Shown: positions 1 to 31,811 of the stretch, piece after piece | Numbering within the stretch: position 1 is the first letter of the stretch | Layout: the number at the start of each line of letters is the position of its first letter | Source: a virus | Direction: 5' to 3' (one strand) | DNA length: 31,811 nucleotides | Virus genome (UHGV): UHGV-0116366 | Made by a program: the position numbers and the translations under genes | Notes under the pieces: model-generated | What the model was told of the DNA's origin: nothing | Seen by the model: the letters and a program-made list of their open reading frames with translations, nothing else | Database searches by the model: none

Positions 1-1
1 C

Positions 2-76
2 TTCGAACGTCTGATGGAAGGCGCTAAACTGCTGAAATGCAGCGAGTTTGGTGACGCGATCATCGAAAACATGTAA
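2..76 (+). CDS. icd: 3' end of isocitrate dehydrogenase gene (partial; window starts inside the gene)
   Basis: Frame beginning at nt 2 translates to FERLMEGAKLLKCSEFGDAIIENM followed by TAA; this matches my recollection of the enterobacterial Icd C-terminus (KCSEFGDAIIENM). icd is a known integration site for lambdoid prophages such as e14 and phage 21. Confidence 0.75.
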   Translation, partial: FERLMEGAKLLKCSEFGDAIIENM

Positions 77-101
77 TCTGCTTTCTTGATTGCAACTGAA
101 A

Positions 102-128
102 CGGGAGCCAATTGGTTCCCGTTTTTAT
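102..128 (+). terminator. rho-independent terminator downstream of icd
   Basis: Hairpin aacgggagcc-aatt-ggttcccgtt followed by a T-run (ttttattatt). Confidence 0.6.
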
Positions 129-145
129 TATTAGCTTTCGAGCGG

Positions 146-165
146 TTATCAAAATATTATCAAAA
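146..165 (+). promoter_or_regulatory. tandem direct repeat TTATCAAAA (x2, 11-bp period) in the promoter region of the 200-1036 gene
   Basis: ggTTATCAAAAtaTTATCAAAAcag read directly; sits between a possible -35 (ttagct) and the start codon. Confidence 0.35.
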
Positions 166-199
166 CAGTTTAACAAAACGAACAAGGATAGCTTAAGTA

Positions 200-28306: not shown

Positions 28307-28328
28307 AACCCGCTTCGGCGGGTTTTTT
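28307..28328 (+). terminator. strong rho-independent terminator
   Basis: aacccgc-ttcg-gcgggtt hairpin (UUCG tetraloop) followed by tttttt. Confidence 0.65.
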
Positions 28329-28344
28329 AATGCCCGGAGTTTAT

Positions 28345-29646
28345 ATGGCGTGGAAAGACAGACTTCAGGATGCGTCATTCCGTGGCGTACCATTTAAGTT
28401 CGAAGGTGAAGGGGCGGCGGTTGGCCGTCGAGTTGAAACACACGAATACCCCAACCGCGATAAACCCTACACCGAAGATCTCGGTAAGGTCACCTTCCGG
28501 CCAAATATCACCGCCTATGTCGTCGGCGACGATTGTTTCGAACAGCGTGACAGACTAATTGAAGCACTGAATAAACCAGGACCAGGCACTCTGGTACATC
28601 CAACATATGGTGAGCTTAACGTCTGTGTTGATGGTGAGATCCGTGTTAGTACGACCAGTAGTGAGGGGCGGATGGTGCGCTTTGATCTACAGTTCGTCGA
28701 AGCGGGTGAACTTGAATATCCAACGGCTGGCGCAGCAACAGCTAACACGCTGGCATCTTCCTGTTCAGCACTTGATGATTGTATCAGCGACAACTTTGAA
28801 CAGTTCGGCATGGGTGGTTTGCCTGACTTCGCTCAGGGAGATGTGCTTGAGCGTGCAACTGGCATCCTGGACTTTGTTTCTGATTCTATGGCGATGGTCG
28901 ACAGCTATGTCGCAGACGCAGCGAGACTTATGCAGGGTGATATTTCTGTTCTTCTTCCTCCTCCGTCATCAGGAAAAGGATATGTCGAAGCTATTCAGAA
29001 AGTGTGGTGCACGGCGAACAGACTATCCGGAAATGCTTCTGACGTTATGAAAATGATTAAGGGGTTCGCCGGGATTTCGTTGGGATCAGATATGGCCCCG
29101 CGAGGTATATGGAAAACGGACAGCAAAAGCACACAGAGCAGCAAGGAACAGGGGAATTATGTTGCCAGTGCAGTACGCACAACCGCCATAAGCGAAGCGG
29201 TTTACGCTGTTACAACACTGCCAACACCTGCAATAACGACAAAGGAACAAACTCAGCAGTCTTCTGGATGGCCTGCTGTGACACACCCTGCGCTGAATAA
29301 CGCACCGGATGAGACGGCGGTGGTTGATGTGCCGACGTGGGATGACCTCGTTGATATCCGCGACACGCTGAATACCGCTATCGATAAAGAACTATCCCGC
29401 ACTACCGATGACCGTTTGTTTCTGGCTTTGCGCCGGGTGAAGTCGGACCTTAACAACGATATAAAACACCGCCTTGTACAGACCCAAAAGACAGTTATCA
29501 GGACACCTGATGAGGTAACTCCGGCACTGGTTCTGGCAGCGACCTGGTTCGATAACGCTGCACGGGAGTCTGACATTGTCAGGCGTAATGCTGTGGCTCA
29601 CCCAGGCTTTGTGCCGGTATCTCCACTGAGGGTTCCTGTACGATGA
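28345..29646 (+). CDS. DNA circulation protein (Mu gpN-like)
   Basis: N-terminus MAWKDRLQDASFRGVPFKFEGEG..RRV..HEYP is the Mu N-type DNA circularisation N-terminal domain; start at 28345 preferred (GGAG RBS). Confidence 0.8.
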   Translation: MAWKDRLQDASFRGVPFKFEGEGAAVGRRVETHEYPNRDKPYTEDLGKVTFRPNITAYVVGDDCFEQRDRLIEALNKPGPGTLVHPTYGELNVCVDGEIRVSTTSSEGRMVRFDLQFVEAGELEYPTAGAATANTLASSCSALDDCISDNFEQFGMGGLPDFAQGDVLERATGILDFVSDSMAMVDSYVADAARLMQGDISVLLPPPSSGKGYVEAIQKVWCTANRLSGNASDVMKMIKGFAGISLGSDMAPRGIWKTDSKSTQSSKEQGNYVASAVRTTAISEAVYAVTTLPTPAITTKEQTQQSSGWPAVTHPALNNAPDETAVVDVPTWDDLVDIRDTLNTAIDKELSRTTDDRLFLALRRVKSDLNNDIKHRLVQTQKTVIRTPDEVTPALVLAATWFDNAARESDIVRRNAVAHPGFVPVSPLRVPVR

Positions 29647-30722
29647 ACGATAACGTAACGCTGAGGGTTAACGGACGTGAATGGGGCGGCTGGACTTCGA
29701 CACGTATCGGCGCTGGCATCGAGCGGCTGGCGCGCGATTTTAGCGTTGAGATCACCCGACAATGGCCTGGTGGAGATGGAATTTCCTCATTGCAACCTCG
29801 GGTAAAAAGCGGAGATAAAGCAGAAATACTGATTGGTGATGATCTGGTGGTCACTGGCTGGATTGAAGCAACGCCGGTTCGCTACGATGCGCGCTCAATT
29901 AGCGTTGGAATTAGCGGGCGCAGCCTGACTGCCGATCTGATTGATTGCGCTGCTGAGCCGACACAATTCAATGGGCAATCACTCGTTCAGGTGGCCGCTG
30001 CGCTTGCCAGACCTTTCGGTATAGCGGTTGTAAACGCTGGCGCACCGGGTGGCGCTATTCCCGGAGTACAACCCGATCACGGTGAAACAGTTATCGAAGT
30101 CCTCAACAAGATGCTTGGACAACAGCAGGCGCTGGCCTACGACGACCCTCGGGGCAGGCTTGTTATCGGCGGCATTGGTAGCACGCGCGCTCATACAGCT
30201 CTGGTGCTGGGTAAAAACGTTATTTCCTGCGATACCGAGAAAAGCATCCGTGAACGTTTTTCAACGTACCAGGTCTCGGGGCAGCGTGCCGGAAACGATG
30301 ATGATTTTGGGGCTGCGACAACAACGGCGCTTCGCGCAAAAACAACAGACGCATCAATTGGCCGCTATCGTCCCATGGCAGTACAGCAGACGGGGCAGTC
30401 AACAGGAGCCAGTTGCATTGCTCGTGCTGAATTCGAGGCGCGCCAGCGAGCTGCACGTACTGATGAAACCACATACACAGTGTGGGGCTGGCGGCAGGGT
30501 GACGGTTCACTGTGGCAACCAAACCAGCGCGTTATCGTCTATGACCCCATTTGTGGTTTCAATAACCGCGAGCTGCTCATTTCTGAAGTGTCATTCACTA
30601 AAGACAACAACGGCACAATAACCGAACTACGTGTCGGGCCGCCGGATGCCTATCTGCCAGAACCTGAAAATGACAGCAAGAAGCATGGCAAAAAACGGAA
30701 AGTCAAAGAGGACCCGTTCTGA
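29643..30722 (+). CDS. tail/baseplate hub protein (Mu gpP-like)
   Basis: 359-aa protein following gpN in Mu order; ATGA-coupled. Confidence 0.75.
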   Translation: MNDNVTLRVNGREWGGWTSTRIGAGIERLARDFSVEITRQWPGGDGISSLQPRVKSGDKAEILIGDDLVVTGWIEATPVRYDARSISVGISGRSLTADLIDCAAEPTQFNGQSLVQVAAALARPFGIAVVNAGAPGGAIPGVQPDHGETVIEVLNKMLGQQQALAYDDPRGRLVIGGIGSTRAHTALVLGKNVISCDTEKSIRERFSTYQVSGQRAGNDDDFGAATTTALRAKTTDASIGRYRPMAVQQTGQSTGASCIARAEFEARQRAARTDETTYTVWGWRQGDGSLWQPNQRVIVYDPICGFNNRELLISEVSFTKDNNGTITELRVGPPDAYLPEPENDSKKHGKKRKVKEDPF

Positions 30723-31270
30723 TGAGCGTGATGCAAAGTCTGCAAAGGCAACTGTTAGGACTCATTGGCCGCGCTGTGGTGAAGAGTATCAACGCGGCTT
30801 CTAAGTGCCAGATGATAGATGTTGAGTTACTGGCTGGGCAGCAAAAGGCGGGCATTGAGCACCTTGAACCCTATGGCTTCACCTCTCGTGCAAAACCGGG
30901 TGCTGAGGCTGTTGTTCTGTTTCCTGACGGTGACCGTTCTCACGCCGTTGCGATCACCGTGTCTGATCGTCGCTATCGCATGAAGGGGCTCAAAACGGGG
31001 GAGGTCGCTCTCTACGATGACCAGGGACAGTCAGTCACGCTCACACGCGCCGGGATTGTTGTAGATGGTGGTGGCAGGGTGATTACGTTCAAAAACGCGC
31101 CAAAAGCCCGTTTTGAAATGGATCTTGATGTTACTGGTCAGGTCAAAGACCTCTGCGATTCTGGTGGTCTGACAATGTCAGCCATGCGCGTTGCCTACAA
31201 CGGACACCATCACAAAGAAAACGGGCAGGGAAATAAAACCGATGCACCCGATAACAAGATGGAGGTGTGA
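30722..31270 (+). CDS. baseplate assembly protein V / spike (Mu gp45-like)
   Basis: 182-aa protein with the gp45/gpV OB-fold-like N-terminus (DVELLAGQQKAGIEHLEPYGFTSRAKPGAEAVVLFPDGD). Confidence 0.8.
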   Translation: MSVMQSLQRQLLGLIGRAVVKSINAASKCQMIDVELLAGQQKAGIEHLEPYGFTSRAKPGAEAVVLFPDGDRSHAVAITVSDRRYRMKGLKTGEVALYDDQGQSVTLTRAGIVVDGGGRVITFKNAPKARFEMDLDVTGQVKDLCDSGGLTMSAMRVAYNGHHHKENGQGNKTDAPDNKMEV

Positions 31271-31695
31271 TGGAACTCTGGCTGACAGTCAACGGAACCC
31301 GGGTAAATGCCAGTTCTCAACTTGACCCACTTACTCGCGCAGTGGTGATTTCGTTCTTCACTCACCGGCGCGCAGACCCTGACGACAATGCTGATGTACC
31401 GATGGGGTGGTGGGGAGATACCTGGCCGATGGTGGCCAACGATCGCTATGGGTCAAAGCTATGGCTTTTACAACGGAGCAAGCTCACAAACGCGCTGGTG
31501 AATACGGTGCGAACGTATCTCCGCGAATCCCTTCAGTGGATGCTCGATGACGGTGTTGTGTCCAGGATAGATATAGATATACAGCGAACCGGTATCAATG
31601 AACTGGGAAACAGCATTGTTCTGTGGCGCCGGGATGGTCCGGTAACAATTTCTTTTAACGATTTCTGGAGCGTGATTGCAAATGGCGGACAGTGA
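31267..31695 (+). CDS. baseplate protein (Mu gp46-like)
   Basis: 142-aa protein in conserved position after gp45. Confidence 0.65.
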   Translation: MMELWLTVNGTRVNASSQLDPLTRAVVISFFTHRRADPDDNADVPMGWWGDTWPMVANDRYGSKLWLLQRSKLTNALVNTVRTYLRESLQWMLDDGVVSRIDIDIQRTGINELGNSIVLWRRDGPVTISFNDFWSVIANGGQ

Positions 31696-31811
31696 ATTTC
31701 AGCGGCCAACGCTGGCCGAAAACATCAGCATGATCCGCACCGACCTTTTTGCTCGGCTTGACATCAATGATGAGCTTCGCCGCATGGATGAAGATGTCAG
31801 GGCCAAAGTTT
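31682..31811 (+). CDS. baseplate J-like protein (Mu gp47-like), 5' fragment; continues beyond window
   Basis: ATG at 31682 opens a frame (MADSEFQRPTLAENISMIRTDLFARLDINDELRRMDEDVRAKV) running to the window end; position after gp46. Confidence 0.55.
   Translation, partial: MADSEFQRPTLAENISMIRTDLFARLDINDELRRMDEDVRAKV

Follow-up and report, generated by a model that had tools for sequence, protein, structure and literature searches.

Does the stretch of DNA from the virus genome UHGV-0116366 represent a recent and unusual hybrid, in which the control region of one phage family was joined to the head of a second and the tail of a third, or does it belong to a lineage in which this combination has long been established? 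The window analysed here comprises 31,811 nucleotides and is one entire metagenome contig (ENA assembly ERZ651867). Very probably, it covers the attL-proximal 31.8 kb, or left three quarters, of a temperate phage belonging to the SfV-like lambdoid myoviruses. The phage adds a member to this established group, located at an integration hotspot that is likewise known, and does not constitute a new kind of hybrid. SfV-like phages have been defined as lambdoid Myoviridae (PMC3603311), and SfI, SfII, SfIV and SfV are myoviruses with head proteins of the HK97 family, the contractile tail of SfIV having been seen by electron microscopy (PMC3851460). The window shares the hallmarks of these phages: a lambdoid layout in which int and xis occupy one end, cI and cro diverge and Q precedes the lysis and late genes; head and packaging genes of the HK97 family; a Mu-ordered contractile tail and baseplate; and collinear similarity to named members. 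The most likely host is Citrobacter or a close Escherichia relative; the sheath protein is 96-97% identical in amino acid sequence to proteins of Citrobacter and Kluyvera, and exact copies of the cargo proteins occur in Citrobacter species and E. coli.

The assignment is carried by similarity that runs through both structural modules. A megablast search of 50,697 phage records returned vB_EcoM-689R6 (hereafter 689R6), SfII, SfI, SfIV, SfV, ST64B and phiP27 as the best deposited matches, all at approximately 75% nucleotide identity; for SfII, SfI and SfIV this identity extends over positions ~15830 to 25000 in two aligned pieces. Homologues of the 47 open reading frames (ORFs) in the window are most numerous in 689R6 (31), SfII (29) and SfV (26), compared with eight in HK97 and six in Mu. 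From the HNH endonuclease gene to gp47 the window is collinear with SfII and 689R6, and also with SfI, SfIV and SfV, with mostly 70-90% amino acid identity to SfII, SfV and 689R6. Relative to SfII and 689R6 the values are 87% for the small terminase subunit TerS, 89-90% for the large subunit TerL, 80% for the portal, 84% for the protease and 77-78% for the major capsid protein (MCP) on the head side, and 88% for the neck protein, 82% for the tail terminator, 85% for the sheath, 88% for the tube, 72% for N, 80-81% for P, 78-80% for gp45 and 81% for gp46 on the tail side. Lower values were found for the ORFs following TerL (60%) and the capsid gene (~53%) and for the connector (51-53%), while the chaperone (43%) and the tape measure protein (23%) are different alleles.

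All gene calls of the original prediction, which had described a lambdoid control region, an HK97-family head and a Mu-like tail, were reproduced by ORF listing, translation and Pfam searches. The split into an HK97-type head and a Mu-type tail is likewise correct at the level of protein families. In BLAST comparisons HK97 is matched by the HNH, TerL, portal, protease, MCP and gp6-like connector genes at about 25-33% amino acid identity, and Mu by gp38, sheath, N, P, gp45 and gp46 at 26-41%; head genes gave no match to Mu and tail genes none to HK97. If these two were the only reference phages, one might picture that a siphovirus resembling HK97 or lambda recently recombined with a Mu-like phage, with a fresh, cargo-marked seam between head and tail, all the more as AT-rich islands do exist in the window. 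We consider such an origin extremely improbable, because the 26-41% identity to HK97 and Mu contrasts with 70-90% identity to SfII, SfV and 689R6 across both modules, and because no AT-rich island lies at the HK97-like/Mu-like seam (~21800-23600). Moreover, the pairing is not new to the literature: a passage of PMC4542187, citing Allison et al. 2002 and 2003, describes the SfV tail as Mu-like and the SfV structural genes as having evolved from two phage families, and as cited there and in PMC3603311 the head/tail combination of SfV has been published since 2002-2003.

How old the combination may be was addressed by scanning species-representative genomes with the sheath protein and reading the gene content upstream of it. 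Homologues of the HNH, TerS, TerL, portal and MCP genes were present upstream in 20 of the 24 non-Pseudomonas loci, which are mostly from Enterobacterales and offer at least 7.5 kb of upstream DNA, whereas Mu head genes were found upstream of the sheath gene in none of the 24. Citrobacter, Kluyvera, Edwardsiella, Kosakonia, Shigella, Atlantibacter, Buttiauxella, Scandinavium, Mangrovibacter, Mixta and Serratia are among the genera with the pairing. Since it is kept across so many genera, the head-plus-tail combination is old and fixed in a large lineage, which also speaks against a recent cross. Thus, the make-up from three families is ancestral to the whole group rather than the product of a recent event. 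The original prediction had presented the contig as a good example of modular exchange and had itself named the placement of head and tail in one well-known lineage by homology searches as the outcome that would speak against this view. Both modules fall into the SfV-like lineage, as judged from the collinearity with SfII and 689R6 and from the 20 of 24 loci, and the claim of a noteworthy exchange is therefore not supported by that prediction's own standard. The contig can be annotated as a prophage of the SfV-like lambdoid myoviruses at the icd site, and its architecture of three families is not to be regarded as a new mosaic; its significance beyond annotation is small.

The same scan brought up tail genes in other contexts. 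Sheath relatives with 52-57% amino acid identity were found at 50 further loci (L050-L099), nearly all in Pseudomonas, and in 44 of these the 10 kb upstream of the Mu/SfV-like tail genes contain neither head nor terminase genes. These headless loci are consistent with the Mu/SfV-related tailocins described previously (PMC4542187, PMC4684702). Related tail genes also occur in Shigella (L025), E. coli (L026), an Enterobacter sp. (L027) and a metagenome-assembled genome of Enterobacteriaceae (L028). HK97-type head genes are absent upstream within 10 kb in L025-L027 and within the only ~0.5 kb available in L028. A Q homologue (77% amino acid identity) takes the place of the head genes in L027, and L025 and L026 are devoid of homologues of N, P, gp45 and gp46. 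These four loci could be tail-only elements or carry another type of head.

Exchange within the group can be located by comparing the window with related loci. We aligned it by BLASTN to 42 such loci and clustered the ends of the aligned segments, taking these ends as a proxy for recombination points. The most frequent break (21825-22035; 28 loci) lies inside the connector gene, followed by breaks between tube and chaperone genes (25613-25685; 19 loci), at the right edge of the AT-rich island between lysis and packaging genes, island 2 (15444-15564; 16 loci), between TerL and portal (18102-18111; 16 loci) and between the tape measure gene and N, just before the latter (28301-28351; 16 loci). 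The end of the capsid gene (21424-21446; nine loci) and the boundary of the DUF968 gene and Q (10693-10770; eight loci) are less often affected. The closest relative differs from block to block, namely for the early genes, for Q and island 1, for the endolysin, for portal to capsid, for chaperone and tape measure, and for the rest of the tail. For example, a Scandinavium locus is closest for portal, protease and MCP (88-95% amino acid identity; 85-95% for the block from portal to connector), whereas for the tail Citrobacter and Kluyvera come closest (90-98%). The tail region 22125-31811 is 96% identical at the nucleotide level to six loci (L007-L012), and the similarity falls sharply at the boundary between the connector gene and that of the head completion protein (HCP). 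Thus, all the recent exchange that can be seen took place within the group, for the most part at simple boundaries between genes. What the comparison provides is a map of the exchange sites of the group, i.e. TerL/portal, the interior of the connector gene, tube/chaperone and tape measure/N, most of which are gene boundaries free of cargo.

The islands themselves were delimited with a 200-nucleotide sliding window of GC content. There are three large AT-rich islands at 61-1093 (34.5% GC), 11015-11834 (island 1; 32.8%) and 13783-15405 (island 2; 37.1%), as opposed to 51.9% elsewhere, and two short AT-rich stretches, one in the cI/cro operator region and one in the gap between holin and endolysin genes. 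The large islands occupy the classical moron slots between att and int, between Q and the late terminator, and between lysis and packaging genes, and each is bounded by a break in similarity in at least some comparisons. To this extent the proposal that module junctions coincide with cargo holds good, namely for the att/int, Q/late promoter and lysis/packaging junctions. It fails for the head/tail seam and for most of the recurrent breaks, because no island is present at TerL/portal, in the connector, at tube/chaperone or at tape measure/N. Only eight of 54 break clusters lie within 150 nucleotides of an AT-rich stretch, where about nine are expected by chance given that the stretches and their margins make up ~16.5% of the window. 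Even the slot of island 2 is not a seam in every comparison: in SfII, SfV and 689R6 similarity resumes exactly at the HNH gene that follows the island, but in five close relatives the island has been passed on along with the lysis accessory genes and the terminase, and there is no seam among those.

Three of the six loci whose tail is 96% identical to that of the window (L008, L011 and L012) carry at their right end (~14568-16676), just past genes for DinI and an S24 protein, a gene for a flagellin of 499 amino acids and one for a phase-1 flagellin repressor (Flag1_repress, fljA-like). The genomes concerned are not E. coli, the best E. coli match having 78% nucleotide identity over 26% of the query. 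This flagellin may be prophage-borne cargo.

Where does the phage reside? Positions 1-76 of the window (plus strand) encode the last 25 codons and the stop codon of icd, with the translation FERLMEGAKLLKCSEFGDAIIENM*. The junction of icd and prophage in E. coli PCP07014 is 99% identical to the window over 400 nucleotides, and positions 1-2422 as a whole are 97.6% identical to this strain, in which the Abi-int-xis arm follows a complete icd gene. As in icd-integrating prophages, a phage-side icd 3' end is contiguous with the integrase arm, and icd has been described as an occupied hotspot of integration at which the 3' end is duplicated (PMC3603311). By analogy with e14 and phage 21, positions 1-76 would represent the phage-borne replacement of the icd 3' end. 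Insertion at icd, which had been proposed before, is thus well supported by homology to the near-identical E. coli junction, with the qualification that the crossover core of attL and the whole of attR lie outside the window.

The same 76 nucleotides raise the alternative that the contig stems from free or excised phage DNA and, as this molecule, was not integrated at icd. Phages of the icd type carry their own icd 3' end beside attP (e14/phage 21 model; for the 3' duplication, see PMC3603311), and the last 76 nucleotides of icd alone cannot tell attL from attP. Since these are only nucleotides which such phages carry themselves, the contig taken by itself is compatible with an excised form. 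We nevertheless regard this origin as quite unlikely, given that the near-identity to the integrated E. coli junction persists up to the very start of the window and that in a lysogen the assembly is expected to break at the duplicated segment of icd.

In an integrated prophage, recombination by a lambda-type integrase and excisionase would place the phage within the 3' end of icd, and the gene would stay intact as the phage supplies its own copy of this end. The predicted tyrosine integrase (1033-2163, minus strand) is IntE-like with a lambda-type arm-binding domain (Arm-DNA-bind_1, 1.3e-35; Phage_integrase, 5.9e-19), and shares 86% of its amino acids with the integrase of 689R6 and 36% with HK97 Int. 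It is accompanied by an excisionase gene (2144-2389, minus strand; Pfam Exc, 3.1e-12). Just after icd lies a terminator-like hairpin (98-125, plus strand) consisting of a 12-pair stem and a T run, and a similar hairpin follows the icd' remnant of L007, the relative with the same tail. The island between att and int is filled by a cargo gene (200-1036, plus strand) for a putative abortive-infection protein of the AbiC/AbiP type (Pfam putAbiC, 2.3e-18; PADLOC AbiP, 9e-10, and AbiC, 4e-4). The icd' remnant of L007 comprises 55 codons and is located at the end of that locus, after DinI, an S24 protein and DUF4365-TPR cargo. The last of these is a 649-amino-acid protein with DUF4365 and TPR domains, encoded at ~14849-16798 of L007 in the right arm beside the icd' remnant, and it marks a further cargo slot on the attR side.

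Several points weigh against the assignment to an SfV-like phage or limit it. The contig does not cover the whole phage: it breaks off within gp47, while gp48, the genes for the fibres and attR lie beyond the right end, just as the attL crossover core lies to the left of the window. Its coverage is low (~4.7x), so that small assembly errors are possible. Tube, chaperone and tape measure proteins gave no BLAST match to Mu and were assigned by Pfam family and position. Virions with an isometric head and a contractile tail have been shown for SfIV, SfV, SfII and SfI (PMC3851460), whereas the window is known from its genes alone, and it is from these that we infer morphology, inducibility and Q-dependent late transcription. 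Finally, the early-left operon of the relatives is absent between xis and cI. The ~660 nucleotides concerned (2390-3051) contain no convincing gene; what remains are the flanks of a ClpX zinc-finger gene, as the conserved non-coding segments 2615-2742 and 2888-3100 match either side of the gene for a ClpX C4 zinc-finger protein in relatives. Sequences matching this region occur in ~1,390 E. coli genomes. There was no Rfam match in 2300-3100 at E values up to 1, and folding of 2390-3051 was no better than that of shuffled sequences on either strand (z = 0.10 and -0.35).

The missing early-left operon could be taken as a sign that the contig derives from a defective or cryptic SfV-like prophage remnant unable to form plaques. 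The end of the contig inside gp47, with the rest of the baseplate and the fibres out of sight, would agree with this, as would the clear decay of the related prophage L013, in which TerL is directly followed by a tail-fibre assembly gene. We think that a remnant of this kind is unlikely, albeit less so than an excised molecule. The structural and regulatory ORFs all have the same length as in intact relatives and contain neither frameshift nor internal stop; the early-left content varies among the relatives; and the contig ends are most simply explained by assembly breaks at repeats. Early-left genes are usually accessory in lambdoid phages. A temperate SfV-like phage remains the reading that we favour, and its predicted genes are described below in this framework.

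The early control region starts with a divergently transcribed pair. A CI repressor with a helix-turn-helix and a self-cleaving S24 domain is encoded on the minus strand (3052-3678; Peptidase_S24, 3.8e-27; HTH_3, 8.9e-10) and Cro on the plus strand (3781-4008; P22_Cro, 1.2e-11). The LexA-like, self-cleaving CI and Cro would form the switch. The genes that follow up to Q are all on the plus strand. They specify a CII-like regulator of the CP76/YmfL family (4019-4570; Phage_CP76, 1.1e-9; 63-66% amino acid identity to SfV, SfII and 689R6) and a protein resembling replication initiators (4912-5769; HTH_36 and Phg_2220_C; 76% identity over 181 amino acids to SfII and 689R6). Next come a Dam-type N6-adenine methyltransferase (5766-6647; Pfam Dam, 6.4e-45) and a C5-cytosine methyltransferase of 665 amino acids (6640-8637; DNA_methylase, 4e-20; DNA methyltransferase families of PHROG), which has no match in SfII, SfV or 689R6. 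The latter enzyme is about twice the usual length; its long middle region matches a separate family, phrog_23072, and the version in L013 has 644 amino acids. A Holliday-junction resolvase (8634-9020; RusA, 1.1e-14), an antirepressor with Rha and KilAC/ANT domains (9034-9717; ANT, 9e-25; Phage_pRha, 1.3e-10) and a YdfU-like DUF968 protein (9714-10709; DUF968, 1.1e-77) complete the early genes. A scan of the window for tRNA genes was negative, and no Rfam family scored above its gathering threshold in it.

The late antiterminator Q (10727-11089, plus strand; Phage_antitermQ, 1.6e-53) is separated by island 1 from a tR'-like terminator that immediately precedes the lysis genes (11852-11877, plus strand; 11-pair stem and T run). 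Klebsiella phages and mEp390, both with annotated terminators, have a conserved counterpart of the surrounding region. The terminator would be the target of Q, whose antitermination at this site, upstream of the holin, endolysin and spanin genes, would turn on the late genes. The lysis cassette, again on the plus strand, is predicted to encode two holins (11990-12644; Phage_holin_8, 4.2e-35; Phage_holin_3_7, 3.6e-20), an endolysin of glycoside hydrolase family 19 (GH19; 12800-13414; Glyco_hydro_19, 5.9e-8), which has 69% amino acid identity to the product of an L001 gene that bears the annotation glycoside hydrolase family 19, and an overlapping pair of Rz-like and Rz1-like spanins (13422-13860). 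The spanins were recognized by their sequence, including the lipobox LTASC of the Rz1-like protein, by the gene calls in L016 and L013 and by their place after the endolysin. Between the second holin gene and that of the endolysin is an AT-rich gap of 155 nucleotides harbouring a strong terminator-like hairpin on the minus strand (12649-12678; 13 pairs and a T run) that points leftward. In L013 and L018 the gap is likewise found with the GH19 endolysin; it is absent in L017, where the endolysin gene directly follows the holin gene, and is also absent where a GH108 endolysin replaces GH19 (L014, L015).

In total, the cargo consists of the Abi-like gene and six small ORFs of unassigned function. 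Two of these are located on the minus strand of island 1, at 11138-11383 (81 amino acids, with a C-terminal hydrophobic stretch) and 11413-11703 (96 amino acids). Neither matched a family in Pfam, PADLOC, PHROG or NCBIfam, and a DNA search of the island against deposited phages found counterparts only for the 3' end of Q and the late-terminator region. The same slot is filled by methylase, unknown or AAA-ATPase genes in L013, L015 and L017. The other four ORFs make up island 2, at 13900-14136 and 14303-14611 on the plus strand and at 14679-15047 and 15068-15274 on the minus strand. In the same databases their only family matches were a HEAT repeat in the 68-amino-acid protein encoded by the last of them (2.6e-8) and PHROG_31348, a family of unknown function. 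Island 2 has no DNA match in the 50,697 phage records, and yet the block is conserved in prophages L013-L018; the prophages of Citrobacter and E. coli that have it differ in backbone. In Citrobacter freundii, C. portucalensis, C. cronae, C. europaeus and E. coli there are exact or near-exact copies of the island proteins, annotated as hypothetical.

By position and composition, the island ORFs look like ordinary morons, and any role in defence or exclusion is a guess. It would be tempting to see in the four-gene cassette of island 2, or in the two-ORF set of island 1, a new superinfection-exclusion, defence or counter-defence module of a prophage hotspot. This is rather unlikely, although somewhat less remote than the other alternatives considered here. 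The best candidate is the cassette of island 2, with its two plus-strand ORFs and a convergent pair encoding a protein of 122 amino acids and the HEAT-repeat protein. The small genes in the three moron slots are candidates for phage-resistance screens.

Head and packaging genes are encoded on the plus strand throughout, starting with the HNH endonuclease gene beside the terminase genes (15459-15809; HNH, 4e-10; 30% amino acid identity to HK97 HNH and 76-78% to SfV and SfII). It is followed by TerS (15935-16435; Terminase_4, 3.5e-20; 87-88% to SfII and SfV) and TerL (16432-18165; TerL_ATPase and TerL_nuclease domains; 89-90% to SfII/SfV, 26% to HK97 gp2). The gap between TerL and portal accommodates a hydrophobic protein of 60 amino acids (18178-18360) with 60% identity to SfII_03, which is annotated as a membrane protein. 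The HK97-family portal (18360-19589; Phage_portal, 3.6e-107) is 80% identical to that of SfII, 30% to that of SfV and 31% to HK97 gp3, and the prohead serine protease of the S78, HK97 gp4 family (19576-20229; Peptidase_S78, 7.6e-34) is 33% identical to HK97 gp4. The HK97-family fold (PF05065) of the MCP (20244-21458) is predicted for residues 115-397 (Phage_capsid, 1.6e-74; 26% identity to HK97 gp5 over 202 amino acids); among solved structures, that of the Rhodobacter gene transfer agent (RcGTA; 6TB9, 1.7e-72), also an HK97-family capsid, is its best relative. The protein has an N-terminal extension of ~110 amino acids, and there is no separate scaffold gene. A small protein after the capsid gene (21501-21770; PHROG_1020 and PHROG_21989, both of unknown function), the HK97 gp6-like head-tail connector (21804-22130; Phage_connect_1, 9e-12; 29% to HK97 gp6) and the head completion or closure protein (22127-22540; Phage_HCP, 1.9e-21) conclude the module. 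We propose that the HNH nuclease acts with TerS and TerL to package DNA into an HK97-family capsid, which would be built from the portal, the S78 protease and a capsid protein with its own N-terminal scaffold-like domain.

A Mu-ordered gene set, also on the plus strand, would build the contractile tail and baseplate. The neck or tail completion protein (22515-23018) has 88% amino acid identity to SfII_10 and SfV orf8, annotated as tail completion or Neck1, and is followed by the tail terminator (23018-23578; Phage_tail_terminator, 2e-27) and a small Mu gp38-like protein (23587-23763; DUF2635, 5.8e-15; 35% to Mu gp38). The Mu L-like contractile sheath protein (23753-25252) displays three sheath domains and is 35% identical over 503 amino acids to Mu L and 85% to its SfII/SfV counterparts. 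Next are the genes for the tail tube (25252-25608; Tail_tube, 1.4e-32; 88% to SfII and SfV, with no BLAST match to Mu M), the tail assembly chaperone (25608-26015; Phage_TAC_7, 2.2e-8) and the tape measure protein (26016-27923; PhageMin_Tail, 5.8e-40), a divergent allele with 23% identity to that of SfII. Programmed frameshifting is usual in tail assembly chaperones. The chaperone gene in the window probably has a -1 frameshift extension, as frame translations revealed a run of seven T at ~25857-25863 and a -1 frame that is open up to the start codon of the tape measure gene.

Between tape measure and N there is a gap of 400 nucleotides with an ORF of 63 amino acids and unassigned function (28033-28224), which has 51% identity to part of SfV orf28, a gene that lies in the early-left region of SfV. 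Exact copies of this ORF, named hypothetical, are found on more than 100 contigs, mostly of Citrobacter. The baseplate genes begin with the Mu N-like protein (28345-29646; DNA_circ_N, 1.1e-32; 26% to Mu N) and the baseplate hub, similar to Mu P/gp44 (29643-30722; GpP and gp44 domains; Protein Data Bank entry 1WRU, Mu gp44, 9.3e-50). They continue with a Mu gp45-like spike protein (30722-31270; Phage_Mu_Gp45, 3.6e-26), a Mu gp46-like protein (31270-31695; GP46, 3.4e-30; 41% to Mu gp46) and the first 43 codons of a Mu gp47-like protein (31682-31811; Baseplate_J; 88% to the SfII/SfV homologues), where the contig ends. Both gp47 and gp48 are complete in L007.

Among known phages, 689R6 (ON470584) is the closest deposited record overall. 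Besides its 31 shared ORFs it has a similar integrase, excisionase (85%) and CI repressor (90%), its record runs into icd, rluE, nudJ, mnmA and hflD, and it too has a cargo slot between icd and int. It differs from the window in that this slot holds a DUF262 gene pair instead of the Abi-like gene, in the presence of yfdP/Q/R early-left genes and in its Q and lysis genes; moreover, the nucleotide identity of ~75% extends over only 49% of the first 25 kb. SfII, SfI and SfIV resemble the window in the collinear segment from HNH to gp47 and in having the cII, Dam, RusA and DUF968 genes in common. By contrast, they have another int/xis pair and attachment site, another cI/cro region and other alleles of Q, lysis cassette, chaperone and tape measure, and their gtr O-antigen cargo is not found in the window, which adds the 665-amino-acid C5 methylase and other moron cargo. 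The type phage SfV shares the lambdoid layout, the HK97-family head and the Mu-like tail, with 72-88% amino acid identity for the tail proteins and 88-90% for TerS and TerL. However, its portal (30%), capsid (24%) and protease (no match) belong to another branch of the HK97 family, a split within the SfV-like group that has already been described (PMC3851460).

The more distant systems each account for one part of the window. Mu agrees with the window in the succession of its tail genes and in their families (gp38, L sheath, tube, chaperone, tape measure, N, P, gp45, gp46 and gp47). Unlike Mu, the window contains no transposase, Mu-type early genes or Mu head genes, and its integration would be site-specific; in tblastn comparisons its 47 ORFs matched six Mu tail genes only and neither transposase A/B nor head genes, which sets it apart from Muvirus. 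HK97 resembles the window in its HNH gene beside the terminase genes, in TerL, the portal, the S78 protease and the gp6-like connector, in a capsid protein of family PF05065 that has no scaffold gene of its own, and in a lambdoid int, cI and RusA. The long, non-contractile lambda-like tail of HK97 has no homologue in the window, where sheath and baseplate genes are found in place of any match to HK97 tail genes, and this distinguishes it from HK97-like siphoviruses. The same applies to N antitermination and the O/P genes, as HK97 N, O and P have no match among the ORFs of the window, which thus does not conform to early control of the lambda N/O/P type. The arrangement at the left end is that of the e14/phage 21 type, with the icd 3' end directly adjoining an accessory gene, followed by int and xis. 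Genes related to the int and xis genes of the window are named intE and xisE in RefSeq entries of other E. coli, the region being ~76% identical at the nucleotide level, and it is in this int/xis region only that e14 was compared with the window.

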